A stretch of 32,000 bases of DNA from Sedimentisphaera cyanobacteriorum. GTDB lineage: Bacteria; Planctomycetota; Phycisphaerae; Sedimentisphaerales; Sedimentisphaeraceae. The stretch spans positions 1,710,001-1,742,000 of the forward strand of contig NZ_CP019633.1 in assembly GCF_001997385.1 (NCBI RefSeq), in the 5' to 3' direction. The translations under genes were made by a program, and so were the position numbers. Numbering within the stretch: the stretch's first letter is position 1; the number at the start of each line of letters is the position of its first letter. Below the pieces are notes generated by a model. That model saw only the letters and a list, made by a program, of their open reading frames with translations, was not told the DNA's origin and made no database searches. This document shows positions 2,097-26,725 of the stretch, in pieces.

Positions 2097-2410
2097 AATC
2101 AAGCTCTCAGGCCAAAACAGCATTTTAAAACTAAAGGCGGGATGTTCAAGCTTAATCCCAAAATCGAAAATCAGCAGTCGCTGCCTGCCCAGTTTACCGC
2201 CGTTGGGATAACGCCCTTGTTGTCTCCCGTGCAGCTGTAATTGAATCTTCAAATTATTGAATAAAAGAGAGTACTTAGCCAAGTGAGCAGCTCTAAAAAA
2301 GTACGGACTCGGATTAAAGTCTTTTTACCTTTTCCCTAAAAAATTAGAAAAAAAAACACGCTTAAAAACATACTTAGATGAAAACATACTTTAATCAGAG
2401 GATTATAACC

Positions 2411-4036
2411 ATGCAAAGAAGAACTTTTTTAAAAAGTGCTGCAGGGGTTTGCGCCTCAGCATGGCTGAGCACGCTATGGTCTTCCAGCGTTTCAGCTGCT
2501 GAGAAACAAAAGCCGAACGTTTTGCTGATTGTCTGCGACGACCTCAACGACTATGTTCAGGGGATGGGAGGCCATCCGCAGGCGAAAACGCCCAACATAG
2601 AGAAGCTCGCTGAATCGGGTACTCTCTTCAAACGGGCATACAGCAGCAATCCGGTATGCGCTCCTTCCAGGGCAAGCTTCCTCACCGGGATATACCCGCA
2701 AACATCAAAGAATCTGTTCTTCGATAAATGGTTCAGGAATCCGGTGCTGAAAAATTCCAAGAGCTTGATGAAATACTTCAGCGAAAACGGCTACAAAACT
2801 GCCGGCTCGGGCAAGCTTATGCACCACTGCCGGCCGAATGAGTGGAACGAGCACAAATACCATCCCGATTATGGGCCGTTCGTTTTCGACGGGGAAAACC
2901 GAATCGCTCACCCGTCTGTGCCCGAGCCATACAGCGAGATTGGAGCTGTTGACGGGTCTTACGCACCGCTTAGCGATAACCCGTTTCCAAACGATGAATC
3001 CGGAAAGAAAGGCTGGATTTACGGCTACCCTTGGGGCGAAAACAAAAAGATGGAATACAAAGACCCTGACCACAGAGACCCCACACCTGATGAGAAAAAT
3101 GCAGACTGGGCTGCGGGGAAGATAAAAGAGTTTGAAAACTCGCAAGACAGCCGCCCGTTTATGCTGGGCGTTGGGTTTGTAAGGCCGCATACTCCGTTTC
3201 ACGTTCCGAAGAAATACTTCGATATGTTTCCCGCGGAGGATGTGAAGGTGCCGATGATAAAGCTTGGCGATAAAGAAGACACCCACTACCTCGACGTTTA
3301 CGACGAGAAACAGAAAGGCCCGAGATATTTCAAAACGCTTGGAGAATCCTATTCAAGCATTGAAGAGGGGCTCAGGCACTTCACGCAGGGATATCTTGCG
3401 AGCATAGCAGCAGTTGACGACTGCATCGGCAAAGTTTTAGATAGCCTGAACAGCAGCTCATTCAAGGATAACACGATCGTTGTTTTAACCAGCGACCACG
3501 GCTGGAATATGGGCGAGAAGGATTATCTGTTCAAAAATTCGCTCTGGGAGGAAAGCACTCGCGTTCCGCTGATAGTGCGGGCTCCCGGGCTTACCAAACC
3601 GGGCACGAAGGCAGAGCATCCTGTTTCGCTGATCGATATTTACCCAACGCTTAAAGACCTCTGCGGGCTGAAGGGCGATACGAGGAAGAATTCCAAAGGC
3701 GCAAAGCTCGACGGCTTCAGCATGAGGCCGTTTCTGGAGAACCCGAAGAGTATGGAGTGGGAAGGGCCTGATGCAGCGATTTCAATGATCTATGCAGGCG
3801 GGGAAACCGGCACCGACCCTATGAAGCAGAACTGGTCTGTGCGCACACTAAATCACCGCTATATTGTGTATCGAAACGGCGATGAAGAGCTATACGACCA
3901 CAGCAGCGACCCATACGAATGGCACAACCTTGCGAAAAAGCCCGGCAGCGATTCGGTTTTGAATTCGATGCGAAGAAAGCTCGCCTCTATGCTCGGAGAC
4001 GTGCCTGAGGGTTTGAAAAAAGCAAAGCGGGGGTAG
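2411..4036 (+). CDS. Sulfatase (arylsulfatase family, Cys-type formylglycine site) with twin-arginine signal
   Basis: Motifs LLIVCDDLNDY and the SNPVCAPSRASFLTG C-x-P-S-R maturation motif, plus SDHGW. The TAT-like N-terminus is MQRRTFLKSAAG. GAGGA lies 8 nt before the ATG at 2411, so this start is preferred over the track start at 2378. Confidence 0.9.
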   Translation: MQRRTFLKSAAGVCASAWLSTLWSSSVSAAEKQKPNVLLIVCDDLNDYVQGMGGHPQAKTPNIEKLAESGTLFKRAYSSNPVCAPSRASFLTGIYPQTSKNLFFDKWFRNPVLKNSKSLMKYFSENGYKTAGSGKLMHHCRPNEWNEHKYHPDYGPFVFDGENRIAHPSVPEPYSEIGAVDGSYAPLSDNPFPNDESGKKGWIYGYPWGENKKMEYKDPDHRDPTPDEKNADWAAGKIKEFENSQDSRPFMLGVGFVRPHTPFHVPKKYFDMFPAEDVKVPMIKLGDKEDTHYLDVYDEKQKGPRYFKTLGESYSSIEEGLRHFTQGYLASIAAVDDCIGKVLDSLNSSSFKDNTIVVLTSDHGWNMGEKDYLFKNSLWEESTRVPLIVRAPGLTKPGTKAEHPVSLIDIYPTLKDLCGLKGDTRKNSKGAKLDGFSMRPFLENPKSMEWEGPDAAISMIYAGGETGTDPMKQNWSVRTLNHRYIVYRNGDEELYDHSSDPYEWHNLAKKPGSDSVLNSMRRKLASMLGDVPEGLKKAKRG

Positions 4037-4038
4037 AA

Positions 4039-4365
4039 TCAGGCGGATTTTGTTTCCGCAGGTTTGCCATCTTGGGGTTTTGATTCGGAGCTGGGAGATT
4101 TCTCGCTTTTGGCGGCATCCTTCCCGCTCTTTTTCTCTGATTTTGCCTCGCTGGCCTTTTTCTCGCCTGCCTTATAGCTTTCGGAGCGGTAATCGGTTTC
4201 ATAGAAGCCTGAGCCCTTGAAGATTGCGCCGGCTCCGGTGCCGATAAGCCTTTTGAGCTTCATCTTTCCGCATTCGGGACATTTTCTAAGGGGCGAGGCG
4301 GTTATCTGCTGAAACTTCTCAAACTCATACCCGCATTCACTGCACTTGTAGTCATACGTCGGCAT
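4039..4365 (-). CDS. FmdB-family (CxxC_CxxC_SSSS) zinc-ribbon protein with a Lys/Ser/Glu-rich tail
   Basis: [33 protein letters not shown] is the classic FmdB zinc-ribbon signature. The start at ATG 4365 overlaps the grpE stop by 14 nt. The longer track ORF (to 4491) lies inside grpE. Confidence 0.75.
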   Translation of the reverse strand: MPTYDYKCSECGYEFEKFQQITASPLRKCPECGKMKLKRLIGTGAGAIFKGSGFYETDYRSESYKAGEKKASEAKSEKKSGKDAAKSEKSPSSESKPQDGKPAETKSA

Positions 4366-5089
4366 CGTTTTTATCCTCCTGAGTTTGTTCAGAATTTTCA
4401 CCCTTCTCAGCATTTTGCTCAGAGGCATCCGGGGCGGCTTCGGCCTGCTGTGATTTATTCTCACTCTCAGGCTGCTGGCTTTGCTCTGCATTTTTCTGCT
4501 TTTGAAGCTTATTCACTGCCACCATTGCCGGACGGACAACCTTATCCTTAATGCGGTAGCCTTTCTGGATTTCCTCCAGAACGACCCCGTCGTCCTTGTC
4601 TTCAAGGCTCTGATTCACAACTGCCCTGTGTACAGACGGGTCGAACTGCTCGCCCTTGGCAGCAATCTGCTCGAGCCCCTGAGTTTTCAGTATCTCAAGC
4701 AGGTTCGAATACACCATCTGCACGCCTTCTACAACGCCTTCTACATTCTCGCTGTTTTCAGAATGCTTTATTGCATGCTCAAAATTATCCAGCCCGGGCA
4801 GAAGCGCCTTGATAAAAGACTCCACCTTGTAGTTTACCTCGTCCTGAATCATCTTCGGAACGCGTTTTTGATAATTGGCATAGTCTGCTCTGAGCCTCTG
4901 GAACTTCTCTTCAAGCTCATTATACTCCTTCTGGAGCTGCTCAATTTTTTCTTTTTTGCTAAGCTTTTTCTGTTCCTTAGCGTTTTTCTCGCTGCCCAAA
5001 TCGGCCTTTTTCTCTTCGGGCTTTGAGTTTATGTCCTGAGCTTTGCTGTGCTCATGATTTTGAGTGTTTTTGTTTTTTTCTTCAGTCAT
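4352..5089 (-). CDS. grpE: Nucleotide exchange factor GrpE, with low-complexity N- and C-terminal extensions
   Basis: GrpE core [14 protein letters not shown]...FDPSVHRAV...[16 protein letters not shown]. The ATG overlaps the dnaJ stop as ATGA at 5086-5089. Confidence 0.9.
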
Positions 5090-6243
5090 TTTTTATTCCC
5101 GAAATAATCTTTCAATTTTTTGAAAAAATTATCCCTCTCAGGAGAAACGTGCTTATCTTCCGTTTCTGCGAAATCCTTAAGCAGCTGCTCCTGTTTTGGT
5201 TTGAGTTTCTTGGGTATCTCCACAGTTACCCGGACAAGCTCATCGCCTTTTCTTGAGCTTCTCAGATCAGGCATTCCCTGCCCCTTTATCCTGAACACAT
5301 CACCATACTGCGTTCCGGCAGGTATTGTAAGCTGTTTTCTGCCTTCAAGGCTTGGGACATCAATCTTTGCCCCGAGAGCCGCCTGAGTAAAGCTTACTGG
5401 AACTACAGCTATCAAATCGTTCCGGTCTCTAACGAGGAACGGATGCTTTTTTATATCAACATAGCAGTAAAGATCGCCGTTCGGGCCTCCGTTTACGCCC
5501 GGCTCGCCCTCACCGGCCACTCTAACCGCCTGTCCTTCATGTATTCCAGCAGGGATCTTAACGGTAACCTTTCTCTTGACCGGCATCCTTCCGCTGCCCT
5601 TGCATTTTGTGCATGGGTTGGATATTACTTTGCCAGTGCCTTTACAGCTTGGGCAGGTAGAGATTGTCTGGAAAAAACCGCCCATTCGTGTAGTGCTAAC
5701 CTGTCCGCTTCCGCCGCAGGTTGGGCAGGTTTTGGGATTCGTCCCCGGTTCGCATCCGCTGCCATCACACTTATCGCACTTATCCTGACGGGTAAAGTCT
5801 ATAGTTCTTTTGCTCTCTTTAGCTGCCTCTTCCAGCGTAAGCTCAACGCTTGTCTCAAGATCGAGACCTTTGCGCGGTGCGTTCGGGTTTGCTCTTCGCC
5901 CGAAACCTCCGCCAAAGCCGCTGCTGAAGCCGCCGCCGAATATATCGCCGAATATATCGCCGAAGTTCGAGAATATATCATCAACGTTCATATTCGAATA
6001 ATCATGAACGCCTGAACCTCTCAGGCCTTCATGTCCGAACTGATCGTATTTCTTGCGTTTCTCGGGGTTGCTGAGAACCTCGTATGCCTCAGCGCACTCC
6101 TTGAATTTCTCCTCAGCCTCTTTATCCCCCTTATTCTTATCGGGGTGATACTTAACTGCGAGCTTTCTGTAAGCCTTTTTTATTTCATCTGCGCTTGCAT
6201 CTTTGCTTACGCCCAGTATTTCGTAGTAATCTCTTTTTGTCAT
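5086..6243 (-). CDS. dnaJ: Molecular chaperone DnaJ (type I: J domain, G/F region, four CxxCxGxG zinc-finger repeats)
   Basis: [37 protein letters not shown], a [12 protein letters not shown] linker, and [32 protein letters not shown]. Confidence 0.95.
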
Positions 6244-6393
6244 AACTTCTGCCCGTTTTTAATTCGCAGCCCGACTCAAGGGCCGAGCTCAAGCTGTCAT
6301 TTCCGCCTCGCCTGTTTACATAAGAAACCCGCTGGCCTTGGCAAGACCTGAGACACGGGCAACTCCGAACAACTCGGAAGAGCTGCGTTTAAG

Positions 6394-6444
6394 AAAAAAC
6401 CGCAGGGCAAAACTCAAATAAACTCCGAGCTAAAGGCCCTGCGG
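6394..6444 (-). terminator. Putative intrinsic terminator after the distal groEL
   Basis: A 9-bp stem pairs CCGCAGGGC (6400-6408) with GCCCTGCGG (6436-6444). On the minus strand it is followed by a T6 run (A-run 6394-6399 on plus). The loop is long (27 nt), so strength is uncertain. Confidence 0.5.
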
Positions 6445-6464
6445 TCTGGCTGATTCAATATCTT

Positions 6465-8099
<1,635 letters not shown>

Positions 8100-8127
8100 C
8101 TAAGGCCATTAAGTCAGTGTCAATGAA

Positions 8128-8415
8128 TTACTCAATTACGCCCAGAATATCGGTTTCGTGCATAATCTTATACTCTTTGCCGTCAACCTTGAAATCGGTA
8201 CCGGCGAAGCGGCCGAACGCCACAAGATCACCAACTTTAACGCTCATCTCGGCATTTTCGCCGTTTTTGAGCGTTTTACCCTCGCCTACGGCAGTAATCT
8301 TGCCCATGAGGGGTTTTTCTTTTGCTGTATCCGGGAGAATAATCCCGCCCTGTGTTACTTCTTCAGCCTCTGAAGGCTCAATCACTACTCTATCACTGAG
8401 AGGTTTTATTTTCAT
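8128..8415 (-). CDS. groES: Co-chaperonin GroES
   Basis: MKIKPLSDRVVIEP...GGIILPDTAKEKP...GDLVAF, a 95-aa Cpn10. Confidence 0.95.
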   Translation of the reverse strand: MKIKPLSDRVVIEPSEAEEVTQGGIILPDTAKEKPLMGKITAVGEGKTLKNGENAEMSVKVGDLVAFGRFAGTDFKVDGKEYKIMHETDILGVIE

Positions 8416-8491
8416 TTTTTTATCTCCTGTATAATAATTGGCAGACAGTTAGTATTATCAAAATTTCCTATGAGCTAAACGGGAGCAGGGA

Positions 8492-10192
8492 CTACATCAT
8501 CCCCATACCGGGCATACCGCCCATTCCTCCCATGCCGCCCATGCCGGGCATACCGCCCATACCACCCATTCCGCCGGACGGGTCCATTCCAGCGCCTGCG
8601 CCGGAATCTTCATCAGGGCTCTGTGTTACAACGCAGTCTGTAGTCATCAAAAGACCTGCAACGCTTGCGCTGTTTTCAAGGGCGATTCTGGTAACCTTAA
8701 CAGGATCAATCACGCCTGCCTCGATAAGGTTTTCGTATTTGCCTGTATTTGCATTGTATCCGTAGCCGTCTTCACCTTCTAAAACGTTATTAACAACGAG
8801 ATTGGCAACTGCACCGGCATTCTCTGCAATGCAGTGGCACGGCATCTTCAGGGCATTTGCTACAGCATTGGCTCCGGTTTTTTCATCACCCTTGAGCTTG
8901 AGCTTCTTAACGGCATCCATGCAGCGAACCAGAGCAACACCTCCGCCTGCTACGATACCTTCCTCAAGTGCGGCTCTTGTAGCGTGAAGGGCGTCTTCGA
9001 TTCGTGCCTTCTTTTCCTTCATCTCCGCTTCGCTTCCAGCGCCAACGTTAATCTGGGCAACGCCGCCGGTGAGCTTGGCCATTCTTTCCTGAAGCTTCTC
9101 GCGGTCGTAGTCGCTGGTGGTGGCTTCTATCTCGCCCTTTATCATATTTATGCGGGCTTGGATATCGCTTTCTGCACCTGCACCTTCAACTATAACCGTG
9201 CTGTCGTTGTCAACTACTATTTTCTTGGCCTGTCCGAGCTGAGCAAGCTGAAGGCTGTCCAGCTCAACGCCCAGATCCTTCATAACTGCCTCTCCGCCTG
9301 TGCAGGCGGCAATATCTTCGAGCATTGCCTTTCTGCGGTCGCCGTAGCCGGGGGCCTTAACAGCACATACATCAACCACGCCTCTCATCTTATTTACAAC
9401 GAGCGTTGCAAGGGCCTCGCCCTCAACATCCTCTGCAATAATAAGAAGGGGACGCTTTGTTTTGGCAACCTCTTCGAGAAGGGGAACAATCTTCTGCACA
9501 TTGCTGATTTTGTCCTCATATATAAGAACGTATGGCTTTGACATTTCGCAAAGCATACTGTCGCTGTTTGTTGCGAAATGGGGGGATAAAAAGCCCCTGT
9601 CGAACTGCATACCTTCAACGTAATCTACTGAGGTTTCAAGGCCTTTGCCCTCTTCCACAGTAATCACTCCGTCCTTGCCGACCTTGGTAAATGCCTCGGC
9701 CATCTGCTTTCCGATCTCTTTGTCGTTGTTTGCAGAGATCGAAGCGATACTCACAATATCCTTCTTGCTCTCAATATTAACAGGCTTGGATATCTTTGCC
9801 AGCTGTTTTACTGCCGCTTCAACAGCCTTCTTGATGCCTCTGTTCATTGCCATTGGGTCTGCGCCGGCGGCAAGATTTCTGTAGGCCTCTTTGAAGATTG
9901 CCTCAGCAAGTACTGTAGCAGTGGTAGTTCCGTCGCCTGCCTTTTTGTTGGTTTTGCTCGCAGCTTCCTTAACAAGTGAGGCTGCCATATTTTCGTTCTT
10001 ATCGAACAGGTCTATCTCTTCTGCTACAGTAACCCCGTCTTTAGTTACTGTCGGGCTTCCCCAGCCCTTGTCTATTATTGCGCAGCGTCCCCGCGGCCCG
10101 AGTGTTGATTTAACGGCCGCCGAGAGCTTTTCAACACCGCTAAGCAGCGATGCTCTCGCATCGGTTTCGAAGGAAAGTTCTTTTTTTGCCAT
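8492..10192 (-). CDS. groEL: Chaperonin GroEL paralog (proximal copy, with GGM-repeat tail)
   Basis: Full-length Cpn60 with [11 protein letters not shown] and [19 protein letters not shown]. The C-terminal tail is [32 protein letters not shown] lies upstream of the ATG. Confidence 0.95.
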
Positions 10193-10409: not shown

Positions 10410-10922
10410 CTACTCTGCGGCAGGGTCAGTTTGCGGGGCATTAGTGCCTATTGCAGCGTTTTTATCTCTCTTCTCCTGAAGACCGGATATAATCATTTCT
10501 GAGGCGTTGCTTTTAGCGATTGCTGTTATAACAGGCTTGTATTCCCTGAACACAAGCTCTCTGTCCATCCTGAGATTAATCATTGCCTCGCCGTGAAGCA
10601 GTTCAATACCCCTGTTTATCATCCTCTCCAATTCAGCTATCGTCCCCTGCCCGGGTTCCAGGGCAAGCTTTGAATTCTGAAAGATGCACATTATCGTTCC
10701 GTCATCCTCCCGCATTACATTCAGAACCACCTCACCGGGCTTAGAGCCTTCATCCGCAACAGATTTATGCATCTGCTCGGGCAATTCCACAGGGTAGTTC
10801 TCCGAAGCGATAAACTGACCGAGGAAAAGCAGGAAAATAATCAGAATAAAGATAATATCAATGATAGCGGTAATATTAAATTCTAAATATCCTGCAGCAT
10901 TTCTCAGCTTTTCGAGAAGCAT
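10410..10922 (-). CDS. exbD: ExbD/TolR-family biopolymer transport protein
   Basis: N-terminal TM segment FNITAIIDIIFILIIFLLFL, then the periplasmic domain pattern (VELP..., INLRMDRELVFREYKPVITAI). The ATG overlaps the exbB stop (TAATG at 10920-10924). Confidence 0.8.
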   Translation of the reverse strand: MLLEKLRNAAGYLEFNITAIIDIIFILIIFLLFLGQFIASENYPVELPEQMHKSVADEGSKPGEVVLNVMREDDGTIMCIFQNSKLALEPGQGTIAELERMINRGIELLHGEAMINLRMDRELVFREYKPVITAIAKSNASEMIISGLQEKRDKNAAIGTNAPQTDPAAE

Positions 10923-11698
10923 TAATAGATACCCTCTATCTTATCAAGCACTGTTTCCGCCTCAACAGCAGCCTCACTGGCCATTGCTTCAAGCTTGTTC
11001 CTAAGATAGCCGTAGATAAAAAGCGACGGGATAGCCACAAACAGCCCCCAGAACGTGGTTACAAGAGCGATTGATATGCCTCCTGCAAGCTGGGATGCGT
11101 CCGGCTGACCGCCTGCCTCAACAATCGTGTTAAACGATTTAATCATACCAAAAACCGTACCGAAAAGACCAACCATAGGAGAGATGTTACCGGTAAGGTT
11201 CAGTCTTTCAACCTTTCTCAATATCTCAAGCGTTCTTTCCTGAAGCACATCAGAAACCATCTGCTGAAGCCCCATGTACCCAACCTCTTTTGTTTTTACG
11301 AGGTTGAACGCCCTTGAAAGCGAATAACTGAGCAAATCATCCTGCTTGGCAGCTGCCGCTTTAATAACCTCTTTATCGCCCTTTTCTGCAATCTTTTTGA
11401 GCTGTTTGGTATTTTCTTCAGGCAGAAGAATTTCCCTGCTTGTCTTAATGCTCAAGTCGATTGCCTGATAACACGAATAGAAAGATAGAGGCATAAGAAC
11501 AAACCATACAATCGGGCCGCCCTCAATAACAAACTGCCTCAAGAACGAAACGCCTTCGTCGTAATCACCTTCCAAAACTGCGCTCTCATCCAGCGAAGAT
11601 TCTTCTCCTTGAGCATGAAGCTGAGCAGAGAGGCCTATAAGTACGAAAAGGCTTATTACAAGCAGCCAAAGTCTTGTCCAGTTCTTGTTCATTTTCAA
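10922..11698 (-). CDS. exbB: MotA/TolQ/ExbB-family proton channel, with signal-peptide-like N-terminus and N-terminal extension
   Basis: Family signature NISPMVGLFGTVFGMIKSF and GGISIALVTTFWGLFVAIP. N-terminus is MKMNKNWTRLWLLVISLFVLIGLSAQLHA. The track start is a TTG at 11698; an alternative ATG lies at 11692. Confidence 0.85.
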   Translation of the reverse strand: MKMNKNWTRLWLLVISLFVLIGLSAQLHAQGEESSLDESAVLEGDYDEGVSFLRQFVIEGGPIVWFVLMPLSFYSCYQAIDLSIKTSREILLPEENTKQLKKIAEKGDKEVIKAAAAKQDDLLSYSLSRAFNLVKTKEVGYMGLQQMVSDVLQERTLEILRKVERLNLTGNISPMVGLFGTVFGMIKSFNTIVEAGGQPDASQLAGGISIALVTTFWGLFVAIPSLFIYGYLRNKLEAMASEAAVEAETVLDKIEGIY

Positions 11699-11699
11699 T

Positions 11700-12914
11700 T
11701 TAATTTACTCCCTCAGAATAAAGTGTAAACTTCCCGCCGCTGTTTTCAGCCATCCGCCTGAGCATAGCAGCGTCTTTACTGTTAGTTCTAAAACCGATTG
11801 TATGTATCTTCACAGCCGGCGCAAATTCTTTCCTGTACCGCTCAACTTCCATCGAGAAGCCTGCATAATCGAATCCGTCTGTAAGGAAATATATCACTCC
11901 GGCATGATCGCCGATGCTGTCTTTGTATTCAATTGCCTTCTTAATGGCCTCCATTGCATCGGGTCCGCCCATTGGCATAGGAACCGATTTCACCATCTCA
12001 AGGCCTGTCTTCTTGCCTGCATCGCTCGCCCTTATGAGCTTTTTCTGCTCGAGCTCCAGTATATCCGAGCCTCGGAACACTATAACCGCAAAGAAATTAT
12101 CCTGCTTGAGGTTTGTTATTGCTTCATTGAGCTTCTGCTTCACTTCTCCAAAGAATCCGAGCATACTCCCTGAGCAGTCAACCACGAAGCAAACCTTCCT
12201 AGCGCTTGCAACGTTTCCAAAAAATTCAATCCTGTTGGACTTTGTTGCAGGGCGTTCTTCGGTGGCCTGCGGGACTCCTGCAATCTGTCCGCTGAGCCTC
12301 GGGCCTGAAACGCGGTATGTGCCCTGTTTTCTGAGCCCGCCGCCGGCTTCTCCTCCGCCGCCGCCTTCGCCTGCGCCTTCAGAAGAGCCTTCTCCGCCTC
12401 CTTCTCCACCTCCTTCACCGCCTTGGCCGCTGCCTTGGCCTTCTTGCCCCTGCCCAGCGCCGCTTTCCGAGCCGCCTTGGCCAGTTCCAGCGCCTTCTCC
12501 GCCTCCTGCACCGCTTGCGCCGCCTTGTCCTCCTGCACCTCCGCCCGGGCCGCCTTCGCCGCCCGCACCTTCAGGGCTGCCCCCTGAAATACCGAGAACT
12601 GAGCTGAGGCTGCCAGCTCCGGAAAGGCTTGCAACGCCCTCAGAACGCATATTTACATCAACATCAAACCGGCCTGCCCCGAAACCTGCGCTGCTGTAGC
12701 CGGAACGCTTTACTGAAGGAGTATCAACGATAAAATCCCCCGAGCTGAAAAAATCCAGCTCACGAACTGCAACAACAGCAGGGTTGTTCAAAAGCTCCTT
12801 GAATCCGCCTCTGGAGAACTGTATCAGGGCGAATGTACCCAGAAGCACAACGTGCACGAGCACCGTGAGACCAAGGGCAATATAATCTATTTTTTTCTGT
12901 TCAATTACCATCAA
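11700..12914 (-). CDS. Membrane-anchored von Willebrand factor A (vWA) domain protein with a long Gly/Glu/Ser/Ala low-complexity spacer
   Basis: N-terminal TM helix IDYIALGLTVLVHVVLLGTFALIQF, a G/E-rich spacer of roughly 100 aa, and a C-terminal vWA fold with MIDAS residues (VCFVVDCSGSM ... YFLTDGFD). The stop is 1 nt from the exbB start. Confidence 0.8.
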   Translation of the reverse strand: MMVIEQKKIDYIALGLTVLVHVVLLGTFALIQFSRGGFKELLNNPAVVAVRELDFFSSGDFIVDTPSVKRSGYSSAGFGAGRFDVDVNMRSEGVASLSGAGSLSSVLGISGGSPEGAGGEGGPGGGAGGQGGASGAGGGEGAGTGQGGSESGAGQGQEGQGSGQGGEGGGEGGGEGSSEGAGEGGGGGEAGGGLRKQGTYRVSGPRLSGQIAGVPQATEERPATKSNRIEFFGNVASARKVCFVVDCSGSMLGFFGEVKQKLNEAITNLKQDNFFAVIVFRGSDILELEQKKLIRASDAGKKTGLEMVKSVPMPMGGPDAMEAIKKAIEYKDSIGDHAGVIYFLTDGFDYAGFSMEVERYRKEFAPAVKIHTIGFRTNSKDAAMLRRMAENSGGKFTLYSEGVN

Positions 12915-13044: not shown

Positions 13045-14292
13045 TCAGTTTATAATCTGAACATGCGATTTGCCCAGCATCATAAGGTCGTAAACCTCCA
13101 CAACATCCTCGTTGCTCAGCCTTATGCAGCCTCGGCTGCTTTTCTGGCCTATGCTCTCGGGCTCGCTGGTTCCGTGAATAGCAAAGCCTGTCCTGCCCTT
13201 TGCATCACCGGAGATGCCCTTAATAGCTATCCACCTCTTGCCGAGAGGATAGTCCGGATCCATTGCGTCATAAGTTCTGCCGGAATCCGGGTCCGTCCAA
13301 GTTGGCGAAACCATCTTCCCCCCGGGTTTTACAACCCACATACCTGTGGGGGTGGCATGCTCTTCTCTGCCTATACCTATCGGATAGGATTTTACGTAAA
13401 GATTGTCAAGGTATAGATCCATATTGTAGGTGCTTTTATTCACGATCAGGTTGAAAGGCCCTTTAACCACCTTGATATCTTCGCCGGCACGGAGCTGTTC
13501 TGGCCTGAGCATATCGTTTATCTTCAGCAGAAATTCCCAAGGAACATTATACTCATCGCCTATTCGGCTAAGCATATCGCCTCTCTGAACAGTATAATAA
13601 TGGCAGTGCGGATCGCCTTTTAAAACATCCTCGCTGAAAAGCCATCTCTCAGAGAGCTTCTCGAGCATATCCTTCAGCGCCCTTCTCTGGAGTGAATCAG
13701 GATACCTGCTGAGGGTGTTGTTTAGCATATCCCTCGCCTTGATAACCTCACCTGAACGAACAAGCGAACGGGCATTTGAGATCTTGCCGCTGATAACATC
13801 TGATTCATCCGTATAACCTTCTGAATCCTCCGAATCTGAAGCATCATCTTCTCCTATAGTATCGCTGTAGGCCGAATCTTGCTCTTCTCCTTCATCTGTA
13901 TCAGCAGGGGTTTGCTCAGTATCATCTTGGTCTGCATAGCCGGCCTCTTCGCCTTCAGTTAAAGGCATTTCACGCTCGGCGCGGGTTTGCTCTTCCGCCT
14001 CACCTACAAGATAACGCGGGGCCTCGCCTGACTGTTCGGTGTCCGCCTCATTTTCTGCTGGCTCCTGAGAGGATGACTGCTGCTCGGTCTGGCTTGCAGT
14101 CTCAGCTGAAGCTGCCTGTTCTTCCGATAAAGCTGTTTGAGAAGATTCTGGAAGCTCAGTTTCCTCCGCCTTGTTGAGAGCCTTAAAAGCAAAGAATATC
14201 CCCGCCGCAATGATAGCACCTATAACCGCAAAAATAAATGTGTTCTTTTTCTTCTGCCTTGAACTGTAAGGCACATAGCCCTTCCTTGCCAT
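13045..14292 (-). CDS. L,D-transpeptidase (YkuD domain) with LysM domain, N-terminal membrane anchor and acidic low-complexity region
   Basis: LysM: YYTVQRGDMLSRIGDEYNVPWEFLLKINDM...LRAGEDIKV. YkuD catalytic motif: FAIHGTSEPESIGQKSSRGCIRLSNEDV. TM: FIFAVIGAIIAAGIFFAF. The ATG at 14292, preceded by AAGGA, is preferred over the TTG at 14298. Confidence 0.85.
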   Translation of the reverse strand: MARKGYVPYSSRQKKKNTFIFAVIGAIIAAGIFFAFKALNKAEETELPESSQTALSEEQAASAETASQTEQQSSSQEPAENEADTEQSGEAPRYLVGEAEEQTRAEREMPLTEGEEAGYADQDDTEQTPADTDEGEEQDSAYSDTIGEDDASDSEDSEGYTDESDVISGKISNARSLVRSGEVIKARDMLNNTLSRYPDSLQRRALKDMLEKLSERWLFSEDVLKGDPHCHYYTVQRGDMLSRIGDEYNVPWEFLLKINDMLRPEQLRAGEDIKVVKGPFNLIVNKSTYNMDLYLDNLYVKSYPIGIGREEHATPTGMWVVKPGGKMVSPTWTDPDSGRTYDAMDPDYPLGKRWIAIKGISGDAKGRTGFAIHGTSEPESIGQKSSRGCIRLSNEDVVEVYDLMMLGKSHVQIIN

Positions 14293-14307
14293 TGTCAATC
14301 CTTTGTC

Positions 14308-14892
14308 TTATGGACGTGTTAATATTCTCTTTTCTGTTATTATAGTGTCCGCCGAAATATCTCTATCCCCGGAAGCTGCCTGCTCCACAATTTGAACCTC
14401 AAAGCAGACCCCGCAAAGATGCCCCCGAACATTATCGGAGCTTAGGAAGCGGTCGTAGTAGCCCCCGCCTTTACCCAGCCTTCCGCCCTGAACATCGAAG
14501 CCGAGCCCTGGCAGTATAATCAAATCAAGCCTCTCCGGCGAAACCTCAGCACCGTCTTGCGGCACTCTTATTCCAAATTTATCTTTTTTAATGCAGTTTT
14601 CAAGCGAATTAAGCCGAACAGCCCGCATTTTTCCCTTCTCCTCTTGAACTTCCGGCACTGCTGCGGCTTTTCCCTGCTTCAGGGCGCTGGCGAGCAGGTA
14701 GTCCAGATTTACCTCATGGCCGTAAGCTAGATACCCCATTACCGCACCTGCCTGTATATAAACCTCAAGCTGCTCAATCCTCTTGCATATCTCAAGCGAT
14801 TTGGCCTGTATATTTTCAGGGCTAAGGCGGGATAAAGCTGCTTTAAGCTCAGACCTCTGAGCGGACTTTCTATTTTTTAGCTCTATATCCAA
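14308..14892 (-). CDS. ygfA: 5-formyltetrahydrofolate cyclo-ligase (MTHFS)
   Basis: Signature ILPGLGFDVQGGRLGKGGGYYDRFL. The start is an apparent TTG, with no early in-frame ATG. Confidence 0.8.
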   Translation of the reverse strand: MDIELKNRKSAQRSELKAALSRLSPENIQAKSLEICKRIEQLEVYIQAGAVMGYLAYGHEVNLDYLLASALKQGKAAAVPEVQEEKGKMRAVRLNSLENCIKKDKFGIRVPQDGAEVSPERLDLIILPGLGFDVQGGRLGKGGGYYDRFLSSDNVRGHLCGVCFEVQIVEQAASGDRDISADTIITEKRILTRP

Positions 14893-15204
14893 AATTCTAA
14901 AGATCTCTGCCTTGTGTATTTAAGTATTACCCTTCGAGCATATTCTAACCTCAGCAGAATAAATATAAATCAGAAAATCCGCAAAAAGCTTAGCAGTGTG
15001 CGACAATATTTTTTGGCAAAATGCAAATCATCAGGCTGCAATGCTTTGCAGAATTTATTATCTATTTACTGAGCCAGTCCGCCTGCGGCGGAAAACTCGC
15101 TAAGGATTTTTTGCCTGAAGGTTTTGTTGGCGAGCATGGGCGAACCTGCGCAAACGCCCGCCTGCGCAGAGTGAAAATTCTGCGAAAAAAACTTATGCAC
15201 TATT

Positions 15205-15437
15205 GATTTTGAACTGCTGGGGATTGGATTAAACCACTAAGCGCTCCAAGGGCGCGAAGAATTTTTTTAAGATATTTTATAACAATGCTTTACGTTCATA
15301 AAATTATCTGTAAAATCTGCGTCATCTGTGGATAATAAACTTCGATGCGACATAAATCTGCGAGATCGTTTACCTGCCAAACTTCTTTAATTAAATCAAA
15401 ACCATATCCCCTTCGTGTGTTTCGCGGGTTTCGTGGT
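15205..15437 (+). repeat. Copy A of a non-coding repeat family of about 200 bp with inverted-repeat ends
   Basis: Aligns to 16385-16562 (same strand) and to the reverse complement of 21172-21379. In the core, 15296-15340 (45 nt) matches the reverse complement of copy C with 5 mismatches. The ends carry inverted CACGAAGG-type motifs. Confidence 0.7.
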
Positions 15438-15614
15438 AAAACAAAAACAAATTAGCGAAATCAACATCATCTCTGGACAAGAAAATCTACTAAAAAAATT
15501 TAAAAAATAACCAAAAATACTGAATTTTAATTTGAATTCTGCGTTTTTATTTGGTAGATTAGGAAATAATAGTTTTTATAAAGTTTAGTGGAATTAAAGT
15601 TGGCAGGTGTGAAA

Positions 15615-16304
15615 ATGAAAAATTTACTGACTCCAACTGTACTGGTTGTTACCGCTTCGGTAAGTTTGGCGGCGTATAATCCTGTGTTTACAATCAATGC
15701 CGAGGCCTCAGAAACAGCATTAGGCTATTAGGAAGGCCAGTCTTACAGTTTCAGCTTTGTTGCTGACGGTTCAAGAACCGAACAAACGGAAGATGTATTC
15801 AGTCAAGCGCAAAACTTATGGAAAACAGAGCTCACCGCAGATGCCCCTGTGTTCCTTGATATTTACGGCTCAGGCGTTTCTGGAGAATATCAAACGCCGG
15901 ATTCGAATAATTCTGACCCATCTGACAGTTTGGATATTTATTTTACAGATCTTGGATTTGATAGCTTTACAGGATTCAATCTTACTGCAGCTGCAGATTC
16001 CAGCAATCTAAGCATCACTGCGCCAAACGATGATTATTTGAAATATGTCGAATTTACTGAAGATAATAGCAGCTTCGGCTTTGACTATTCCAGCCAGACC
16101 TACTTACCCCCCGAAGCGTATTTCTCGGATTATTTAGGGGAGTATGATTTCAGCGATTCTTACGGCAGCTATTTCGAAGTTGAAAATGTAAACGGGGAAT
16201 ATGCAGAATTTAGCGTAACTACTGTTACAATCACCCCCGAGCCGACGACGATGGCACTGATCGGGCTTGGCGGGCTATTTATCCGCCGCAAACGCAGGGC
16301 ATAA
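15615..16304 (+). pseudogene. PEP-CTERM-anchored secreted protein interrupted by one in-frame TAG
   Basis: The ATG at 15615 encodes a signal peptide, MKNLLTPTVLVVTASVSLAA. The same frame then hits TAG at 15729-15731 and stays open to 16304. It ends in a canonical PEP-CTERM sorting signal, TPEPTTMALIGLGGLFIRRKRRA. The track ORF 15849..16304 is the distal part of this frame. Confidence 0.7.
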
Positions 16305-16793: not shown

Positions 16794-18290
16794 ATGAACC
16801 GGCGTAACTTTTTAAGGTCTGTATGCATTGGGGCTTCAGCTTCGTTTCTCTCCGGCTGCGGAGGCTCTTTCCTCACTGAAAACAACCGCAAACCGAATGT
16901 GCTGCTGATAATAGCTGATGATCTTGGTTACGCAGATGTAAGCGCTTATGCTCATTCCTCCCCGGATGTGAACACCCCGAATATGGACAGATTAGCCCGG
17001 GACGGCGTTCGTTTTACGCAAGGATATGTTACCGGGCCTGCGTGCAGCCCTTCCCGCGCTGGATTGAATACTGGTCGATACCAGCAGAGATGGGGTATGT
17101 GGGGCTGGGCTAAGCCTCTGCCAAAAGATGAAAGGATGCTGGCGGAGTATCTCAAACAGGCTGGCTATAAGACGGGGAAATTCGGCAAAAGCGATTTCGG
17201 GCAGAATTATCACCGCACGGATGTTCGTGAATTTCCAATGAACCACGGATTTGACGAGTTTTTAGGATTTTCCGCACATGCCCACGATTATTTTCATTTG
17301 TCTGAGAAAATTGAAAAGGCCACACCCGATCCAAACGGAGCAAGCGCTTCATTAGGTACTTTATTCCATAATAATGCCAAAAAATCATTTGAAAAAGGCT
17401 ATACTACTGAAATCTTTACCGATTACGCTATAGACTTCATAAAACGCCAAAGAGAAAAACCGTTCTTTGCATGCGTATCTTACAATTCAGTGCATGCTCT
17501 GGTGCATCTTGTTCCCGAGCGTTATTTAGAGCGTTTCGGCGCGAAAAAGGTGCCTTTGTATGACCCTGAAAACGGAAAATATTACACTTATTACGACCGC
17601 TACGGCCACGGCAAGGCTGATGTTGATGATGAAACCTATCGCCGGTGGTGCCTTGCTAATACGGCATGTATGGATGATAATATCGGCCGCCTGCTTGACA
17701 CTCTTGAAAAGCTCAATCTTGAAGAAGACACTTTCGTTGTGTTTATGCCTGACAACGGCGGTGCACCAACAAGGGAGACAGGCTCTGTGAATCGGCCGTT
17801 AAAGAGTACGAAATACAGCCTGTTTGAAGGTGGTATTCGAATCCCGATAATAATGCGGTATCCCGCCGGGAAGGCAGCGAAGGGGAAAGTTTGCGAGAAT
17901 GTGGTATCAACGCTGGATATTCTGCCAACCTTTCTCGCCGCAGCGGGGCAGGAGAATATTCAGGGAAAACCGCTGGACGGAAAGAATCTTATGCCAATGC
18001 TCAAACGCCCCGAGAAAACTCAGAAACGCGGCCCGCTGTTTTGGCATTTCGGCGACCAATTTGCTGTTCGCGACGGCGACTGGAAGCTGGTTAAGGCAAG
18101 GCTGTTCACTAAAGATATTATTAGCGGAAGAAAACAGCCGCTCCCTGAGAAGCCGCAGCTGTTCAACTTGAAAAATGACATTGGCGAAACCAATGACTTA
18201 GCAGACAAAAACCCTGAAATAGTGAAAAAGCTGACAAAGGAATACGAAAACTGGAAAGCAGAAATGAGAGCCAGCATTAATCAGGGATAA
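16794..18290 (+). CDS. Sulfatase (arylsulfatase A family, Cys-type) with TAT-like signal and lipobox
   Basis: MNRRNFLRSVCIGASASFLSGCGG (RR motif plus LSGC lipobox), LLIIADDLGYAD, the formylglycine motif TGPACSPSRAGLNTGRY, and DNGG. Confidence 0.9.
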   Translation: MNRRNFLRSVCIGASASFLSGCGGSFLTENNRKPNVLLIIADDLGYADVSAYAHSSPDVNTPNMDRLARDGVRFTQGYVTGPACSPSRAGLNTGRYQQRWGMWGWAKPLPKDERMLAEYLKQAGYKTGKFGKSDFGQNYHRTDVREFPMNHGFDEFLGFSAHAHDYFHLSEKIEKATPDPNGASASLGTLFHNNAKKSFEKGYTTEIFTDYAIDFIKRQREKPFFACVSYNSVHALVHLVPERYLERFGAKKVPLYDPENGKYYTYYDRYGHGKADVDDETYRRWCLANTACMDDNIGRLLDTLEKLNLEEDTFVVFMPDNGGAPTRETGSVNRPLKSTKYSLFEGGIRIPIIMRYPAGKAAKGKVCENVVSTLDILPTFLAAAGQENIQGKPLDGKNLMPMLKRPEKTQKRGPLFWHFGDQFAVRDGDWKLVKARLFTKDIISGRKQPLPEKPQLFNLKNDIGETNDLADKNPEIVKKLTKEYENWKAEMRASINQG

Positions 18291-21527: not shown

Positions 21528-22301
21528 ATGCGTATCCTCAGATTTTCAGTTGCGTTAGCGTTGGCAGCATCAGGCATTGCATTCGGTTTCGCCGCCGGCG
21601 ATGGTTCACAGGCTAATCCTTATCAGGTTGCCAATACGAACGATTTGCAGGAGATAGCGACGAACAATCCTAACTCCGGCGATTATTTCGTTCTTACAAG
21701 CAGCATCACAGGTGTTGACTTTGTTATTGGCGGTAGTTTTAATGGTAATTTTGATGGAGACGGAAATACTATAGACGTTTCCTATCAAGGCACCCTAACC
21801 GGCGACGATGCTCTTTTCGAAGAGATCGGCCAGCAGGGAGTTGTCAAAAACTTAAACGTAAACCTCGACTACGACCTCAGCGCTTACAGCGGAAACTGGG
21901 GATTTGTAGCTGGTATTGCCGGCTTTAACAACGGCGGTACTATCGAGAACTGCTCTGCGGCTGGTTCAATAGATGCCCAGGACAAAGGCCTTGCTGTTGG
22001 CGGTATCGTTGCTTCAAACGCAGGTACTCTGCAGAATTGCCAGTCTGAGGTGTCTATCGCAACAGACTACGGCTGCAACGCAGGCGGTATAGCAGGACAG
22101 TCCACCGGTTCGATTGACGAATGCTCATTCATGGGAAGTATGGATGTGGCAGATTCCGGCTTTGAAAGTATTGACGATACAGCTAATCCGACAATTGCAG
22201 GCGGTATCGTGGGATACGCTTGGGATACGCTTATGACGGTTCAGAATATACCAACCTTACAACAAATGCAGAAATCATCGCTGATGCAAGCGGTGTGGTA
22301 G
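21528..22301 (+). CDS. Fragment 1 of the disrupted surface protein (signal peptide plus first GLUG region)
   Basis: AGGAG precedes the ATG. GLUG-like repeats are present (VGGIVASNAGTLQNC, AGGIAGQSTGSIDEC). The frame is lost after ...IAGGIVGYA, and the last 26 codons are out-of-frame read-through. Confidence 0.75.
   Translation: MRILRFSVALALAASGIAFGFAAGDGSQANPYQVANTNDLQEIATNNPNSGDYFVLTSSITGVDFVIGGSFNGNFDGDGNTIDVSYQGTLTGDDALFEEIGQQGVVKNLNVNLDYDLSAYSGNWGFVAGIAGFNNGGTIENCSAAGSIDAQDKGLAVGGIVASNAGTLQNCQSEVSIATDYGCNAGGIAGQSTGSIDECSFMGSMDVADSGFESIDDTANPTIAGGIVGYAWDTLMTVQNIPTLQQMQKSSLMQAVW
22210..22231. repeat. Perfect 11-bp tandem duplication (tgggatacgct x2) causing the frameshift
   Basis: 22210-22220 is identical to 22221-22231. 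Deleting one unit gives AGGIVGYAYDGSEYTNL, which is continuous across both ORFs. Confidence 0.9.
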
Positions 22302-25102: not shown

Positions 25103-26725
25103 TTACATTTTGTAAGGCGTTGTATTGGTGCTGAGATTAACTGTTTTATAGAGTTTTCTTGCGTCCTCGTTAATCTTTGATGGCAGGACATATCTGCACT
25201 CTGTTTTCTTATCCCAGAGTATGCTCAGCTGCACGTGGTTGAGGGCATTTACAATCCTCGCCACAGACATCGGCTCAAATCTCAGCCGAACCCTGTAGGC
25301 CAGATTTCTCGCGCAGGTTAGAGCGATAAAGCATATCAGTATATGGGCTTTGATTCGTTTCGGCGTCCAGTGGTATATCGGCCGTATCTTCAGATCGTGC
25401 TTGCTTATCCTGAAGCACTCCTCAATCAGCCAGAGCTGCCTGTAATGATCTACTACAGCCGAATCATCCATATCCTTGACATTCGTTATAACACCGTGAA
25501 GACCATCAAAATTCGCAGCCTGCGCGTATTTCTCTTCATCTATCCGGCAGTCTATATCGCCGGTAACACGCATAAACTTCTTGTAGCCGTAGTTGCTTAT
25601 AAGTGATTTGGGGTTGCTGCTCTTTTCAAGCTTCTCCTGGAGCTTTCTTATAGCTTCATCCCTGTCGTGCTTATTCTTTTTAGCGAGTTTATCGCTGTAG
25701 GTAACAATAAGCCTTGTATCTTTGCCGTAATCAAAGCTTCTAAGCGGGGCATTGGATTCTGTAACCTTTGCTTTCCATTTATCAGTGAGGCTTTTAAGCC
25801 TCGCTGCCACAATATACTCAACTCCCTGCTTTTCAAGGTAATCAAGATTAGCCTTGCTAAGCATTGCGCTGTCTGCGGTGAAGATAACACGCTTGAGGTT
25901 GTATTTCTCTTTGATCTTAGGGATTACAGTATGCAGCGTATGCCCTTCATACTGATTGCCGGGGAATACCTCATAACCTACTGGAAGCCCTTCTGATGTG
26001 GACAGAAGACCAAGGACAACCTGCGGCTGATTGAACTTCATATCCTTGCTGTAGCCGTTCTTTTTGAGCTCATCTTCTGTAAATGATTCAAAATAAAGCG
26101 TGGTGCAGTCGTAGAAAAGAAGACTTATCTCTTCGCCGAGAAGGCCTTTAGCAGCACTGTGAGCACAGTTTTGAGCCTTGCTGATAATATCATCTGTGAT
26201 ATTATCCATCATACGGTAAACGCTGTCTAAAGAAAGGTTAATGCCGAAGTCTTTGGAGAGATCCTGAACGCTGCTGCGTTTGCTCACTGGGTTTGCAAGC
26301 CTTGCCATTGTGATATGACGAAGGTTTTTGCCTGCAGACTCTTTGCGTCTATCGAAAAGATTGTTAAAGCCAAGCTCATTGTAGATGCTGCCGAATACCT
26401 CATGGATGCCTGTAGTTATGCGTGCCTGTTCCCTGAGATTCTTTAGATTGACCCGCAAAGGCTTATCATCAATGTTTTTGCGGGCATCTATTGCAGCTTC
26501 TGCAAGATGCTCAGGCTTGAAAAGTGCCGGCGTTTTCTCGGCCTCAAGCTTGGCCTTCTCGAATTCGGCAAAATCCTTGAGCCGCTTAAGCTCTTCTTCT
26601 GTGAAGGCTGTGCCGAGATGACGAACTATACGCTGACGAGGCTGGTTCTTCTCGTTGCGATAACTCTCTACAATCTGTACCGACTGCTTCGGACTGTTTT
26701 TTGATGTCTTTACTCGTATAAACAT
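25103..26725 (-). CDS. DDE transposase, IS4 superfamily (IS1634-like)
   Basis: The N-terminus MFIRVKTSKNSPKQSVQIVESYRNEKNQPRQRIVRHLG is typical of IS1634-group transposases. Candidate DDE residues lie in LFYDCTTLYF and VIFTADSAM, with the YREK-type block YRQLWLIEECFRISKHDLKIRP. Confidence 0.9.
   Translation of the reverse strand: MFIRVKTSKNSPKQSVQIVESYRNEKNQPRQRIVRHLGTAFTEEELKRLKDFAEFEKAKLEAEKTPALFKPEHLAEAAIDARKNIDDKPLRVNLKNLREQARITTGIHEVFGSIYNELGFNNLFDRRKESAGKNLRHITMARLANPVSKRSSVQDLSKDFGINLSLDSVYRMMDNITDDIISKAQNCAHSAAKGLLGEEISLLFYDCTTLYFESFTEDELKKNGYSKDMKFNQPQVVLGLLSTSEGLPVGYEVFPGNQYEGHTLHTVIPKIKEKYNLKRVIFTADSAMLSKANLDYLEKQGVEYIVAARLKSLTDKWKAKVTESNAPLRSFDYGKDTRLIVTYSDKLAKKNKHDRDEAIRKLQEKLEKSSNPKSLISNYGYKKFMRVTGDIDCRIDEEKYAQAANFDGLHGVITNVKDMDDSAVVDHYRQLWLIEECFRISKHDLKIRPIYHWTPKRIKAHILICFIALTCARNLAYRVRLRFEPMSVARIVNALNHVQLSILWDKKTECRYVLPSKINEDARKLYKTVNLSTNTTPYKM

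Follow-up and report, generated by a model that had tools for sequence, protein, structure and literature searches.

A vWA-domain protein encoded with ExbB- and ExbD-family motor subunits in Sedimentisphaera cyanobacteriorum, a candidate force transducer of Phycisphaerae

The window analysed here is a 32,000-nt stretch of Sedimentisphaera cyanobacteriorum DNA (contig NZ_CP019633.1, positions 1,710,001 to 1,742,000; coordinates below count from its first letter). Three adjacent minus-strand genes, below called the trio, encode a protein with a vWA (von Willebrand factor A) domain, an ExbB/TolQ-family subunit and an ExbD/TolR-family subunit. According to an original prediction made from the sequence, the vWA protein takes the place of TonB, and a proton-motive-force-driven motor moves its vWA domain. 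We followed up this prediction computationally. The trio has the following features (pLDDT, predicted local distance difference test).

11700..12914 (-): vWA protein gene, candidate TonB-like 'force transducer'; 404 aa from TTG at 12914
12810..12884 (-): N-terminal transmembrane helix, residues 10-34 (AlphaFold2)
12741..12779 (-): conserved amphipathic segment starting at Pro, residues 45-57, at the position of the TonB D-box or 'motor box'
12708..12731 (-): family box [VI][IT]-P-K-P-K-[VI]-K, residues 61-68; the window protein has a degenerate form, IVDTPSVK
12234..12698 (-): disordered linker (pLDDT<50) with a Gly/Ser/Glu/Ala-rich core, residues ~90-192
11712..12233 (-): periplasmic vWA domain, residues 227-400 (Pfam, AlphaFold2, Foldseek)
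10922..11698 (-): gene for the ExbB/TolQ-family proton-channel subunit, 258 aa
10410..10922 (-): gene for the ExbD/TolR-family subunit, 170 aa

The tight packing of the three genes stated in the original prediction was confirmed by reading both junctions in the sequence. The stop codon of the vWA gene (TAA, 11702-11700) is followed after a 1-nt gap by the TTG start of the ExbB gene (11698), and the ExbB stop and ExbD start overlap in TAATG (10924-10920). If the real ExbB start is the ATG at 11692, the first gap is 7 nt. The vWA gene also has an alternative start, an ATG at 12911, 3 nt inside the TTG, which gives a protein of 403 aa. No second ExbB, ExbD, vWA or TonB-like N-terminus was found elsewhere in the window.

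An AlphaFold2 model of the vWA protein, built on a 20-sequence alignment, contained a single N-terminal helix at residues 10-34 (LGLTVLVHVVLLGTFAL). It carries T16-x3-H20, with the H20 codon at 12854-12852, and thus agrees with the predicted helix bearing Thr-x3-His. The His was invariant in 77 of 77 non-identical family members, and position H-4 was Ser in 75 and Thr in the remaining two, one of which is the window protein. Because His and Ser/Thr are kept at these positions in all 77 sequences, S/T-x3-H is no chance pattern. Further along the helix, H+4 was Leu or Phe and H+7 was Phe (58 members) or Leu (18), which gives the family consensus S-x3-H-x3-L-x2-F. In an hhalign comparison, family residues 1-72 matched TonB and TolA N-termini with a probability of 93% (P 3e-7) and with S-x3-H in register. 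As controls, transpeptidase membrane anchors (7%) and ExbD helices (0.3%) were compared with the same profile. This profile consisted of 11 N-termini, nine from the supplement of Williams-Jones et al. (Mol Biol Evol 2025; PMC12204202) plus those of E. coli TonB and TolA. Across the window and 166 related loci, a search with the N-terminal profile brought up no further TonB-like N-terminus except in a distant gene cluster (L080; E 0.02) described below.

The helix is followed by the segment of residues 45-57 with the pattern P-x-Phi-z-Phi-z-z-Phi-z-z-Phi-Phi-z, in which the main Phi positions were hydrophobic in 82-97% of sequences and one in 78%. In TonB, the D-box captured by the ExbD dimer is a Pro-flanked Phi-z-Phi-z-Phi-Phi-z strand after the helix (PMC10907165). 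By analogy, residues 45-57 may bind ExbD. In the PKPK box that comes next, the family kept P65 in 77/77, K64 in 75/77 and K66 in 56/77 sequences.

Most of residues 43-224 were modelled at pLDDT<50. The linker core (residues 90-192) consists of 50% Gly, 14% Ser, 12% Glu, 10% Ala and 2% Pro, as expected from the prediction of a Gly/Glu/Ser/Ala spacer of ~100 aa instead of a Pro-rich rod. Over its full length of ~190 aa, the linker of the window protein contains 33% Gly and 3.6% Pro; family linkers have a median of ~91 aa and 11% Pro. The window protein is unusually long because the linker alone has expanded. Short imperfect tandem DNA repeats (12337-12566) encode the linker core, and the S. salicampi ortholog and the window protein are distinguished by indels in the linker. 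The Gly/Ser/Glu/Ala-rich core is specific to the clade of the window protein. Two alternative-frame open reading frames (ORFs) lie over the Gly-rich linker (11914-12699, +, 261 aa; 12140-12634, -, 164 aa). They are by-products of GC-rich repetitive coding sequence and no genes.

Pfam identified the C-terminal domain at residues 240-396 (VWA_3, 3.9e-10; VWA, 2.4e-8), and AlphaFold2 modelled a vWA fold at residues 227-400 with a pLDDT of ~90. Foldseek searches against the PDB returned vWA domains only, among them ITIH1 (1e-10), the anthrax-toxin receptor and BatB (4.5e-9), and the family profile matched ITIH4 (1.7e-16) and ITIH1 (1.2e-13) among PDB sequences. The Pfam TonB C-terminal domain (TonB_C) had no match in the vWA protein even at E<=1. 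A canonical TonB C-terminal domain is thus not detected, and the predicted replacement of this domain by a vWA domain is supported by profile and fold.

The claim that the metal-ion-dependent adhesion site (MIDAS) of the window protein is intact was true only in part. D245-C-S247-G-S249 (12179-12165) and D345 in TDG are present. The Thr position, which we set by alignment to GGTN/ATN of the ITIH vWA domains, is occupied by Pro317 (GGPDA, 11958-11960), so that four of the five MIDAS residues are found. The nearest relatives also have Pro at this position (GGPDA, GRPDA, GKPNA), and their clade combines it with the expanded Gly-rich linker and the degenerate PKPK box. In the family, the MIDAS is complete (D 77/77; S 74/77, with three Thr; S 77/77; T 69/77; D 76/76). 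The MIDAS loop is flanked by Cys241 (12191-12189) and Cys246 (12176-12174), kept in 74/77 and 66/77 sequences; a disulfide or a metal-related role of these residues is possible.

The motor subunits were assigned by Pfam (ExbB: MotA_ExbB, PF01618, 2.8e-26; ExbD: PF02472, 4.4e-9). With NCBIfam, the ExbB protein scored 74.9 bits against TolQ (TIGR02796, cut-off 221) and 55.1 bits against ExbB (TIGR02797, cut-off 206.2). Both scores are far below the cut-offs, so that the protein is a divergent superfamily member and can be assigned to neither the TolQ nor the ExbB equivalog. Its motifs GLFGTVfGMI and ALVTTFWGL were kept in >=80% of 74 sequences, with the pore-lining Thr positions equated with those of known motors by alignment only. 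In ExbD, the transmembrane Asp22 (10859-10857) lies in FNmTPiIDiVFLLIIFF, which was conserved in 71 sequences. Since both the membrane Asp of ExbD and the GT/TT motifs of ExbB are conserved, the motor residues are intact.

ExbB begins with a signal-like helix, continues with a short acidic extension and has three canonical transmembrane segments. Instead of the predicted extension of ~60 aa, the extra N-terminus, which does exist, comprises a signal-like segment of ~27 residues and ~25 acidic residues before the first transmembrane segment. It is conserved across the family, although in many relatives the hydrophobic N-terminal segment has no obvious cleavage site. Contrary to what had been supposed, the N-terminus is therefore not atypical, and a signal peptide plus extension also marks a known ExbB class (PMC9008036). 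The Serratia ExbB (HasB system) belongs to this class, and its periplasmic extension plays a part in the function of a specialized TonB paralogue (PMC9008036). This ExbB and that of the window share a signal-like N-terminus and a short, probably unstructured periplasmic extension before the first transmembrane segment; the extension is Ala/Pro-rich in Serratia but shorter (~25 aa) and acidic here.

The best match of the window vWA protein was a protein of Sedimentisphaera salicampi (95% identity; Phycisphaerae, Planctomycetota). Only 23 matches were obtained with the full-length query, whose Gly-rich linker swamped the word index, and a linker-poor alignment was used later. A scan of one genome per species gave 80 loci with 73 clear family members, all labelled Planctomycetota. 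Most were labelled Phycisphaerae, Sedimentisphaerales or Anaerohalosphaeraceae, and many automatically binned metagenome-assembled genomes carried the label 'uncultured Pirellulales'. When the family profile was used as query, 740 of the scored proteins matched at E<=1e-3. All of the 120 matches listed were ~300 aa long (286-367), and every named one was from Planctomycetota. HMMER searches over 1.84 billion representatives yielded 193 matches at E<=1e-30, 5155 at 1e-10 and 16841 at 1e-3, and most of the best 150 were full-length at ~300 aa. We conclude from the steep rise between 1e-30 and 1e-10 and from the uniform length that this is a discrete family.

Gene order was conserved on one strand as 5-formyltetrahydrofolate (5-FTHF) cyclo-ligase, LysM-YkuD L,D-transpeptidase, vWA protein, ExbB and ExbD. 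Wherever the contig allowed a decision, the vWA gene of species-representative genomes was followed by exbB (73/73) and exbB by exbD (70/70), with median gaps of 28 nt and 10.5 nt, respectively. Among metagenome loci picked through the transpeptidase, 16 of 17 had exbB-exbD after the vWA gene, so that the order held in 89 of 90 informative loci overall, all of them from Planctomycetota and most from Phycisphaerae. The vWA homologs are thus linked to exbB/exbD, and the prediction was not refuted by this check.

The first two genes of the conserved block lie upstream of the trio in the window.

13045..14298 (-): membrane-anchored LysM + YkuD L,D-transpeptidase (TRANSPEPTIDASE; Pfam)
14308..14892 (-): 5-FTHF cyclo-ligase (Pfam, 2.8e-36), first gene of the block

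The transpeptidase gene had been overlooked in the original prediction. Its product has the conserved catalytic motif HGT...SRGCIRL (His, Cys) and, in the window, an extra acidic insertion of ~100 aa that is absent from most relatives. The gene was immediately 5' of the vWA gene and on the same strand in 75 of 76 loci (median gap 49 nt), and in some loci, such as L001 and L002, the transpeptidase stop and the vWA start overlap. The window has a gap of 130 nt here, with a promoter-like site in it; our promoter and terminator scan reports consensus-level sites only and gives no verdict on operon boundaries. The cyclo-ligase gene preceded that of the transpeptidase in 69 genome loci and in 52 of 56 metagenome loci. 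A 6S RNA was looked for 5' of the cyclo-ligase gene on the model of the E. coli ssrS-ygfA arrangement, and none was found there at the Rfam gathering or E<=1 thresholds.

A reciprocal test started from 80 metagenome loci chosen through the transpeptidase. The trio followed this gene in 26 of 65 loci and was missing from 39 (for instance L091 3932-7100, L094 and L098), which the transpeptidase tree groups in a small number of clades. Of 30 trio-less loci, 16 had clpX directly after the transpeptidase gene, and in L004, L006 and L007, which have the trio, clpX lies a short way past exbD. Between the transpeptidase gene and clpX, the trio thus occurs as a whole or not at all. Since the transpeptidase and cyclo-ligase genes persist without it, often with clpX next to them, the trio is a self-contained unit that an otherwise conserved housekeeping block has either lost or gained at one fixed position. 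Conservation of the transpeptidase was alike with and without the trio, one position excepted. By its adjacency (4/4 loci inspected first, 75/76 overall) the transpeptidase looked like an obligate fourth component, but the 39 trio-less loci and its like conservation with and without the trio reduce this view to an alternative explanation. Co-transcription of the transpeptidase gene with the trio is plausible; functional coupling is unproven because the transpeptidase persists unchanged in trio-less lineages.

Taken together, the TonB/TolA-like N-terminal profile, the gene linkage, the motor residues and the vWA fold agree, and the idea of a motor-driven vWA domain is therefore well supported in silico. 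We consider it probable (roughly 0.7) that the trio encodes a proton-motive-force-driven ExbB-ExbD motor with a TonB-like arm, whose terminal vWA domain uses its MIDAS face to bind a partner in the wall or outer membrane. The inner-membrane motor would consist of ExbB and ExbD, presumably as a pentamer and a dimer (5:2), with the proton-binding Asp22 in ExbD. The 403-aa protein would have a cytoplasmic N-terminus and a periplasmic C-terminus, and its single helix would dock onto the motor through the Ser/Thr-x3-His face of the TonB/TolA type. Residues 45-68 probably engage the periplasmic domains of ExbD, as the TonB D-box does. The flexible linker would take the vWA domain across the periplasm, where the MIDAS face may grip its ligand, a wall or outer-membrane partner, so that the force of the motor would be transmitted to it as a pull. 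Of the original prediction, this retains the motor and its vWA-headed arm, on the strength of the N-terminal profile, the linkage, the motor residues and the missing TonB_C; novelty, an intact MIDAS and an atypical ExbB are given up.

Several observations weigh against this interpretation. Its support is wholly computational, and members of the class are without phenotype or structure. In the SHLS motif of E. coli the fourth position is Ser; this position is not kept in the family, which has a basic residue or Gln at H+11 and a Ser at H+13 instead. Residues 45-57 fit the D-box pattern only partly and were modelled as low-confidence coil. The window copy may bind differently or more weakly than other family members because its MIDAS Thr is replaced by Pro and its PKPK box is degenerate. 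The sole exception to the linkage, in locus L087, is a vWA gene without exbB-exbD downstream, where flagellar genes are found instead. This locus (3376-8262) encodes a vWA protein with DGSGS, not DCSGS, followed by flgB, flgC, fliE, fliF and fliG.

Alternative explanations differ in which neighbours are thought to work together. The transpeptidase and the trio might form a four-gene, Tol-Pal-like machine, with the motor placing or loading a peptidoglycan/outer-membrane link made by the transpeptidase, in a phylum reported to be without Pal (pal was not found in Planctomycetes by an earlier survey to which the supplement of PMC12204202 refers). The near-constant adjacency of the two, the overlapping start and stop codons in some loci and a membrane-anchored transpeptidase with conserved catalytic residues would suit such a machine, and our literature search found no paper joining YkuD with ExbB. 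The linkage is one-way, however, as the trio-less loci show, and the transpeptidase is equally conserved in their clades. Moreover, the unrelated housekeeping 5-FTHF cyclo-ligase gene is linked just as tightly, so that the association needs no explanation beyond inherited synteny, and the window itself has a 130-nt gap with a promoter-like site between transpeptidase and vWA genes. We regard a four-gene machine as unlikely. An extended proposal, which we consider quite unlikely, makes the trio a third functional Ton/Tol-like type: its metal-dependent vWA head would grip a wall or outer-membrane partner and work with the co-transcribed, membrane-anchored L,D-transpeptidase in building or regulating peptidoglycan-outer-membrane attachment in Phycisphaerae, reported to be without Pal, as a stand-in for Tol-Pal.

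The vWA protein could also be an ordinary membrane-tethered periplasmic protein (BatA/BatB-like or a metal-dependent binder) that is merely co-located with an ExbB-ExbD pair serving an unlinked transducer, such as a canonical TonB. BatB is indeed a structural neighbour (3ibs), and the number of HMMER matches at the most permissive threshold illustrates how common vWA domains are. Yet the N-terminus matches TonB/TolA specifically and not generic anchors, its His is invariant, and the trio is linked in all but one informative locus and gained or lost as a unit. MoxR, DUF58 or BatC-type neighbours are missing. An ad hoc profile of TonB/TolA C-terminal domains had no match among 12,839 ORFs of the window and the 166 related loci, a weak test in view of the weak profile and of loci that are not whole genomes. 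Mere co-location is, on this evidence, very unlikely. We give practically no credence to a further model, in which the vWA protein is a pore-inserting stator partner with an ExbD-like trans-pore helix inside a TolQ pentamer. A second family in PMC12204202 has this design, in which the trans-pore helix of the vWA protein is ExbD-like and carries a conserved Asp, no tolR/exbD is adjacent and S/T-x3-H is missing. It resembles the window protein in its single helix, linker and vWA domain encoded next to a TolQ-like gene. Here, by contrast, residues 10-34 contain no Asp, a separate Asp-bearing ExbD is always present, and the helix carries the S/T-x3-H that the trans-pore family lacks; the model is ruled out by these three features.

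The window has further features away from the trio.

2378-4036 (+): sulfatase (Pfam)
16794-18290 (+): putative sulfatase ORF, judged from sequence reading alone
21528-25003 (+): two surface proteins with Glug-motif/Listeria-Bacteroides repeats
25103-26725 (-): DDE transposase gene

The transposase, repeat surface proteins and sulfatases are typical of polysaccharide-degrading Phycisphaerae. On the minus strand, groEL, groES and groEL follow in this order (6465-10192); of the two GroEL proteins, the upstream one (566 aa) carries a long tail of GGM repeats, and the downstream one (538 aa) has an acidic tail instead. A small secreted protein (15849-16304, +) ends in a PEP-CTERM-type sorting signal (VTITPEPTTMALIGLGGLFIRRKRRA). 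An AT-rich non-coding stretch of ~950 nt (14893-15848) had no Rfam match.

The pulling of a monomeric envelope-spanning arm by a 5:2 proton motor is well established for two systems, Ton and Tol, and vWA-headed arms would be a third type of output beside them. If the vWA domain binds via its MIDAS, force would pass through a metal-ion bond and not through beta-strand addition, a different mechanical solution. The sub-family offers a clean case for study: the module is compact, with three genes and one ExbD, and its vWA protein is uniform at ~300 aa, with little or no variation in the His, the MIDAS and the membrane-proximal box. Some related lineages have the trio and others lack it, which permits comparative genomics of co-varying genes. 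The planctomycete envelope is poorly understood, so any energized trans-envelope system is informative.

Compared with known systems, the vWA protein resembles BatA/BatB in being a bacterial membrane-tethered vWA domain (structural neighbours 3ibs and 4jdu). It differs in its N-terminus and in the missing MoxR/DUF58/TPR (tetratricopeptide repeat) operon context, and BatA/BatB are without motor linkage. Likeness to Tol lies in the ExbB score, which is best against TolQ, in the SHLS helix shared by TolA and in the position of the trio beside a cell-wall enzyme and among housekeeping genes. Genes for TolA domain III, TolB, Pal or CpoB, which belong to Tol-Pal, were absent from the window and 76 loci. 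With TonB-ExbB-ExbD, the trio shares the motor families, the S/T-x3-H helix, a conserved segment at the place of the D-box (PMC10907165), a periplasm-spanning linker and an arrangement of three genes with that of the transducer first. Differences from Ton are the Pro-poor linker, motor subunits ExbB and ExbD far below the NCBIfam equivalog cut-offs, and the absence of a TonB C-terminal domain, which suggests partner capture via the MIDAS face and not by beta-strand addition to a Ton box.

The arrangement, which the original prediction did not recognise as a described system, has a close precedent. Williams-Jones et al. proposed in 2025 (PMC12204202) the same model for related proteins, 'vWA force transducers' beside TolQR-like motors in Proteobacteria, Planctomycetes, Verrucomicrobia, Bacteroidetes and Rhodothermaeota. 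Their transducers are tethered to the inner membrane by an SHLS helix and continue with a disordered region containing a motor box (a predicted beta-strand), a linker of ~100 residues and a C-terminal vWA domain; AlphaFold 3 complexes put the transducer His at the TonB site. No phenotype is reported for them, and the proposal is purely computational. Apart from this paper, our literature search for vWA with TolQ/ExbB found only unrelated work on Myxococcus CglB. The proteins studied here have in common with the published ones a single helix with an SHLS-type motif and conserved His, a disordered membrane-proximal region, a linker of similar length (family median ~91 aa, ~100 residues there), a C-terminal vWA fold, a gene adjoining a TolQ/ExbB-TolR/ExbD-like motor and occurrence in Planctomycetes.

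The published operon of the PVC type combines a TPR gene with a tolQ-like gene and two heterologous tolR-like genes, often upstream of the vWA gene; here, the vWA gene comes first, exbB and only one exbD follow, and a TPR gene is missing. The published reference proteins of Tichowtungia aerotolerans are 474-476 aa long with a long C-terminal extension and have no MIDAS (ILDADKR; LCSGFG), whereas the family described here measures ~300 aa and keeps DxSxS...T...D. We transcribed the Tichowtungia sequences from the supplement of PMC12204202, with one residue restored by analogy with the paralogue. They are only distantly related to the window protein: between the two, BLASTP gave an E value of 0.011 at 25% identity and hhalign a probability of 93.9% (E 1.5e-7), in the vWA region only.

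A second type of cluster was seen in L080 (4061-9442; Sedimentisphaerales), which encodes a distant vWA protein, ExbB, two ExbD proteins and a 958-aa protein without Pfam match. In L004 (7511-10001) and L007 (13747-16467), what look like tails of such clusters (ExbD and a protein of 660-740 aa) are convergent to the trio, with clpX between. The L080-type cluster resembles the published PVC layout, and its vWA protein is closer to Tichowtungia (E 1e-7). These findings suggest that some Phycisphaerae have two vWA-motor systems, of which that of the window is the less described one. The two may be paralogous, because the relative with the two-ExbD layout lies closer to Tichowtungia. By its gene order, its single ExbD, the MIDAS retained in the family and its Phycisphaerae-specific position, the module of the window is a distinct variant: a widespread, Phycisphaerae-centred sub-family within the class proposed in 2025.

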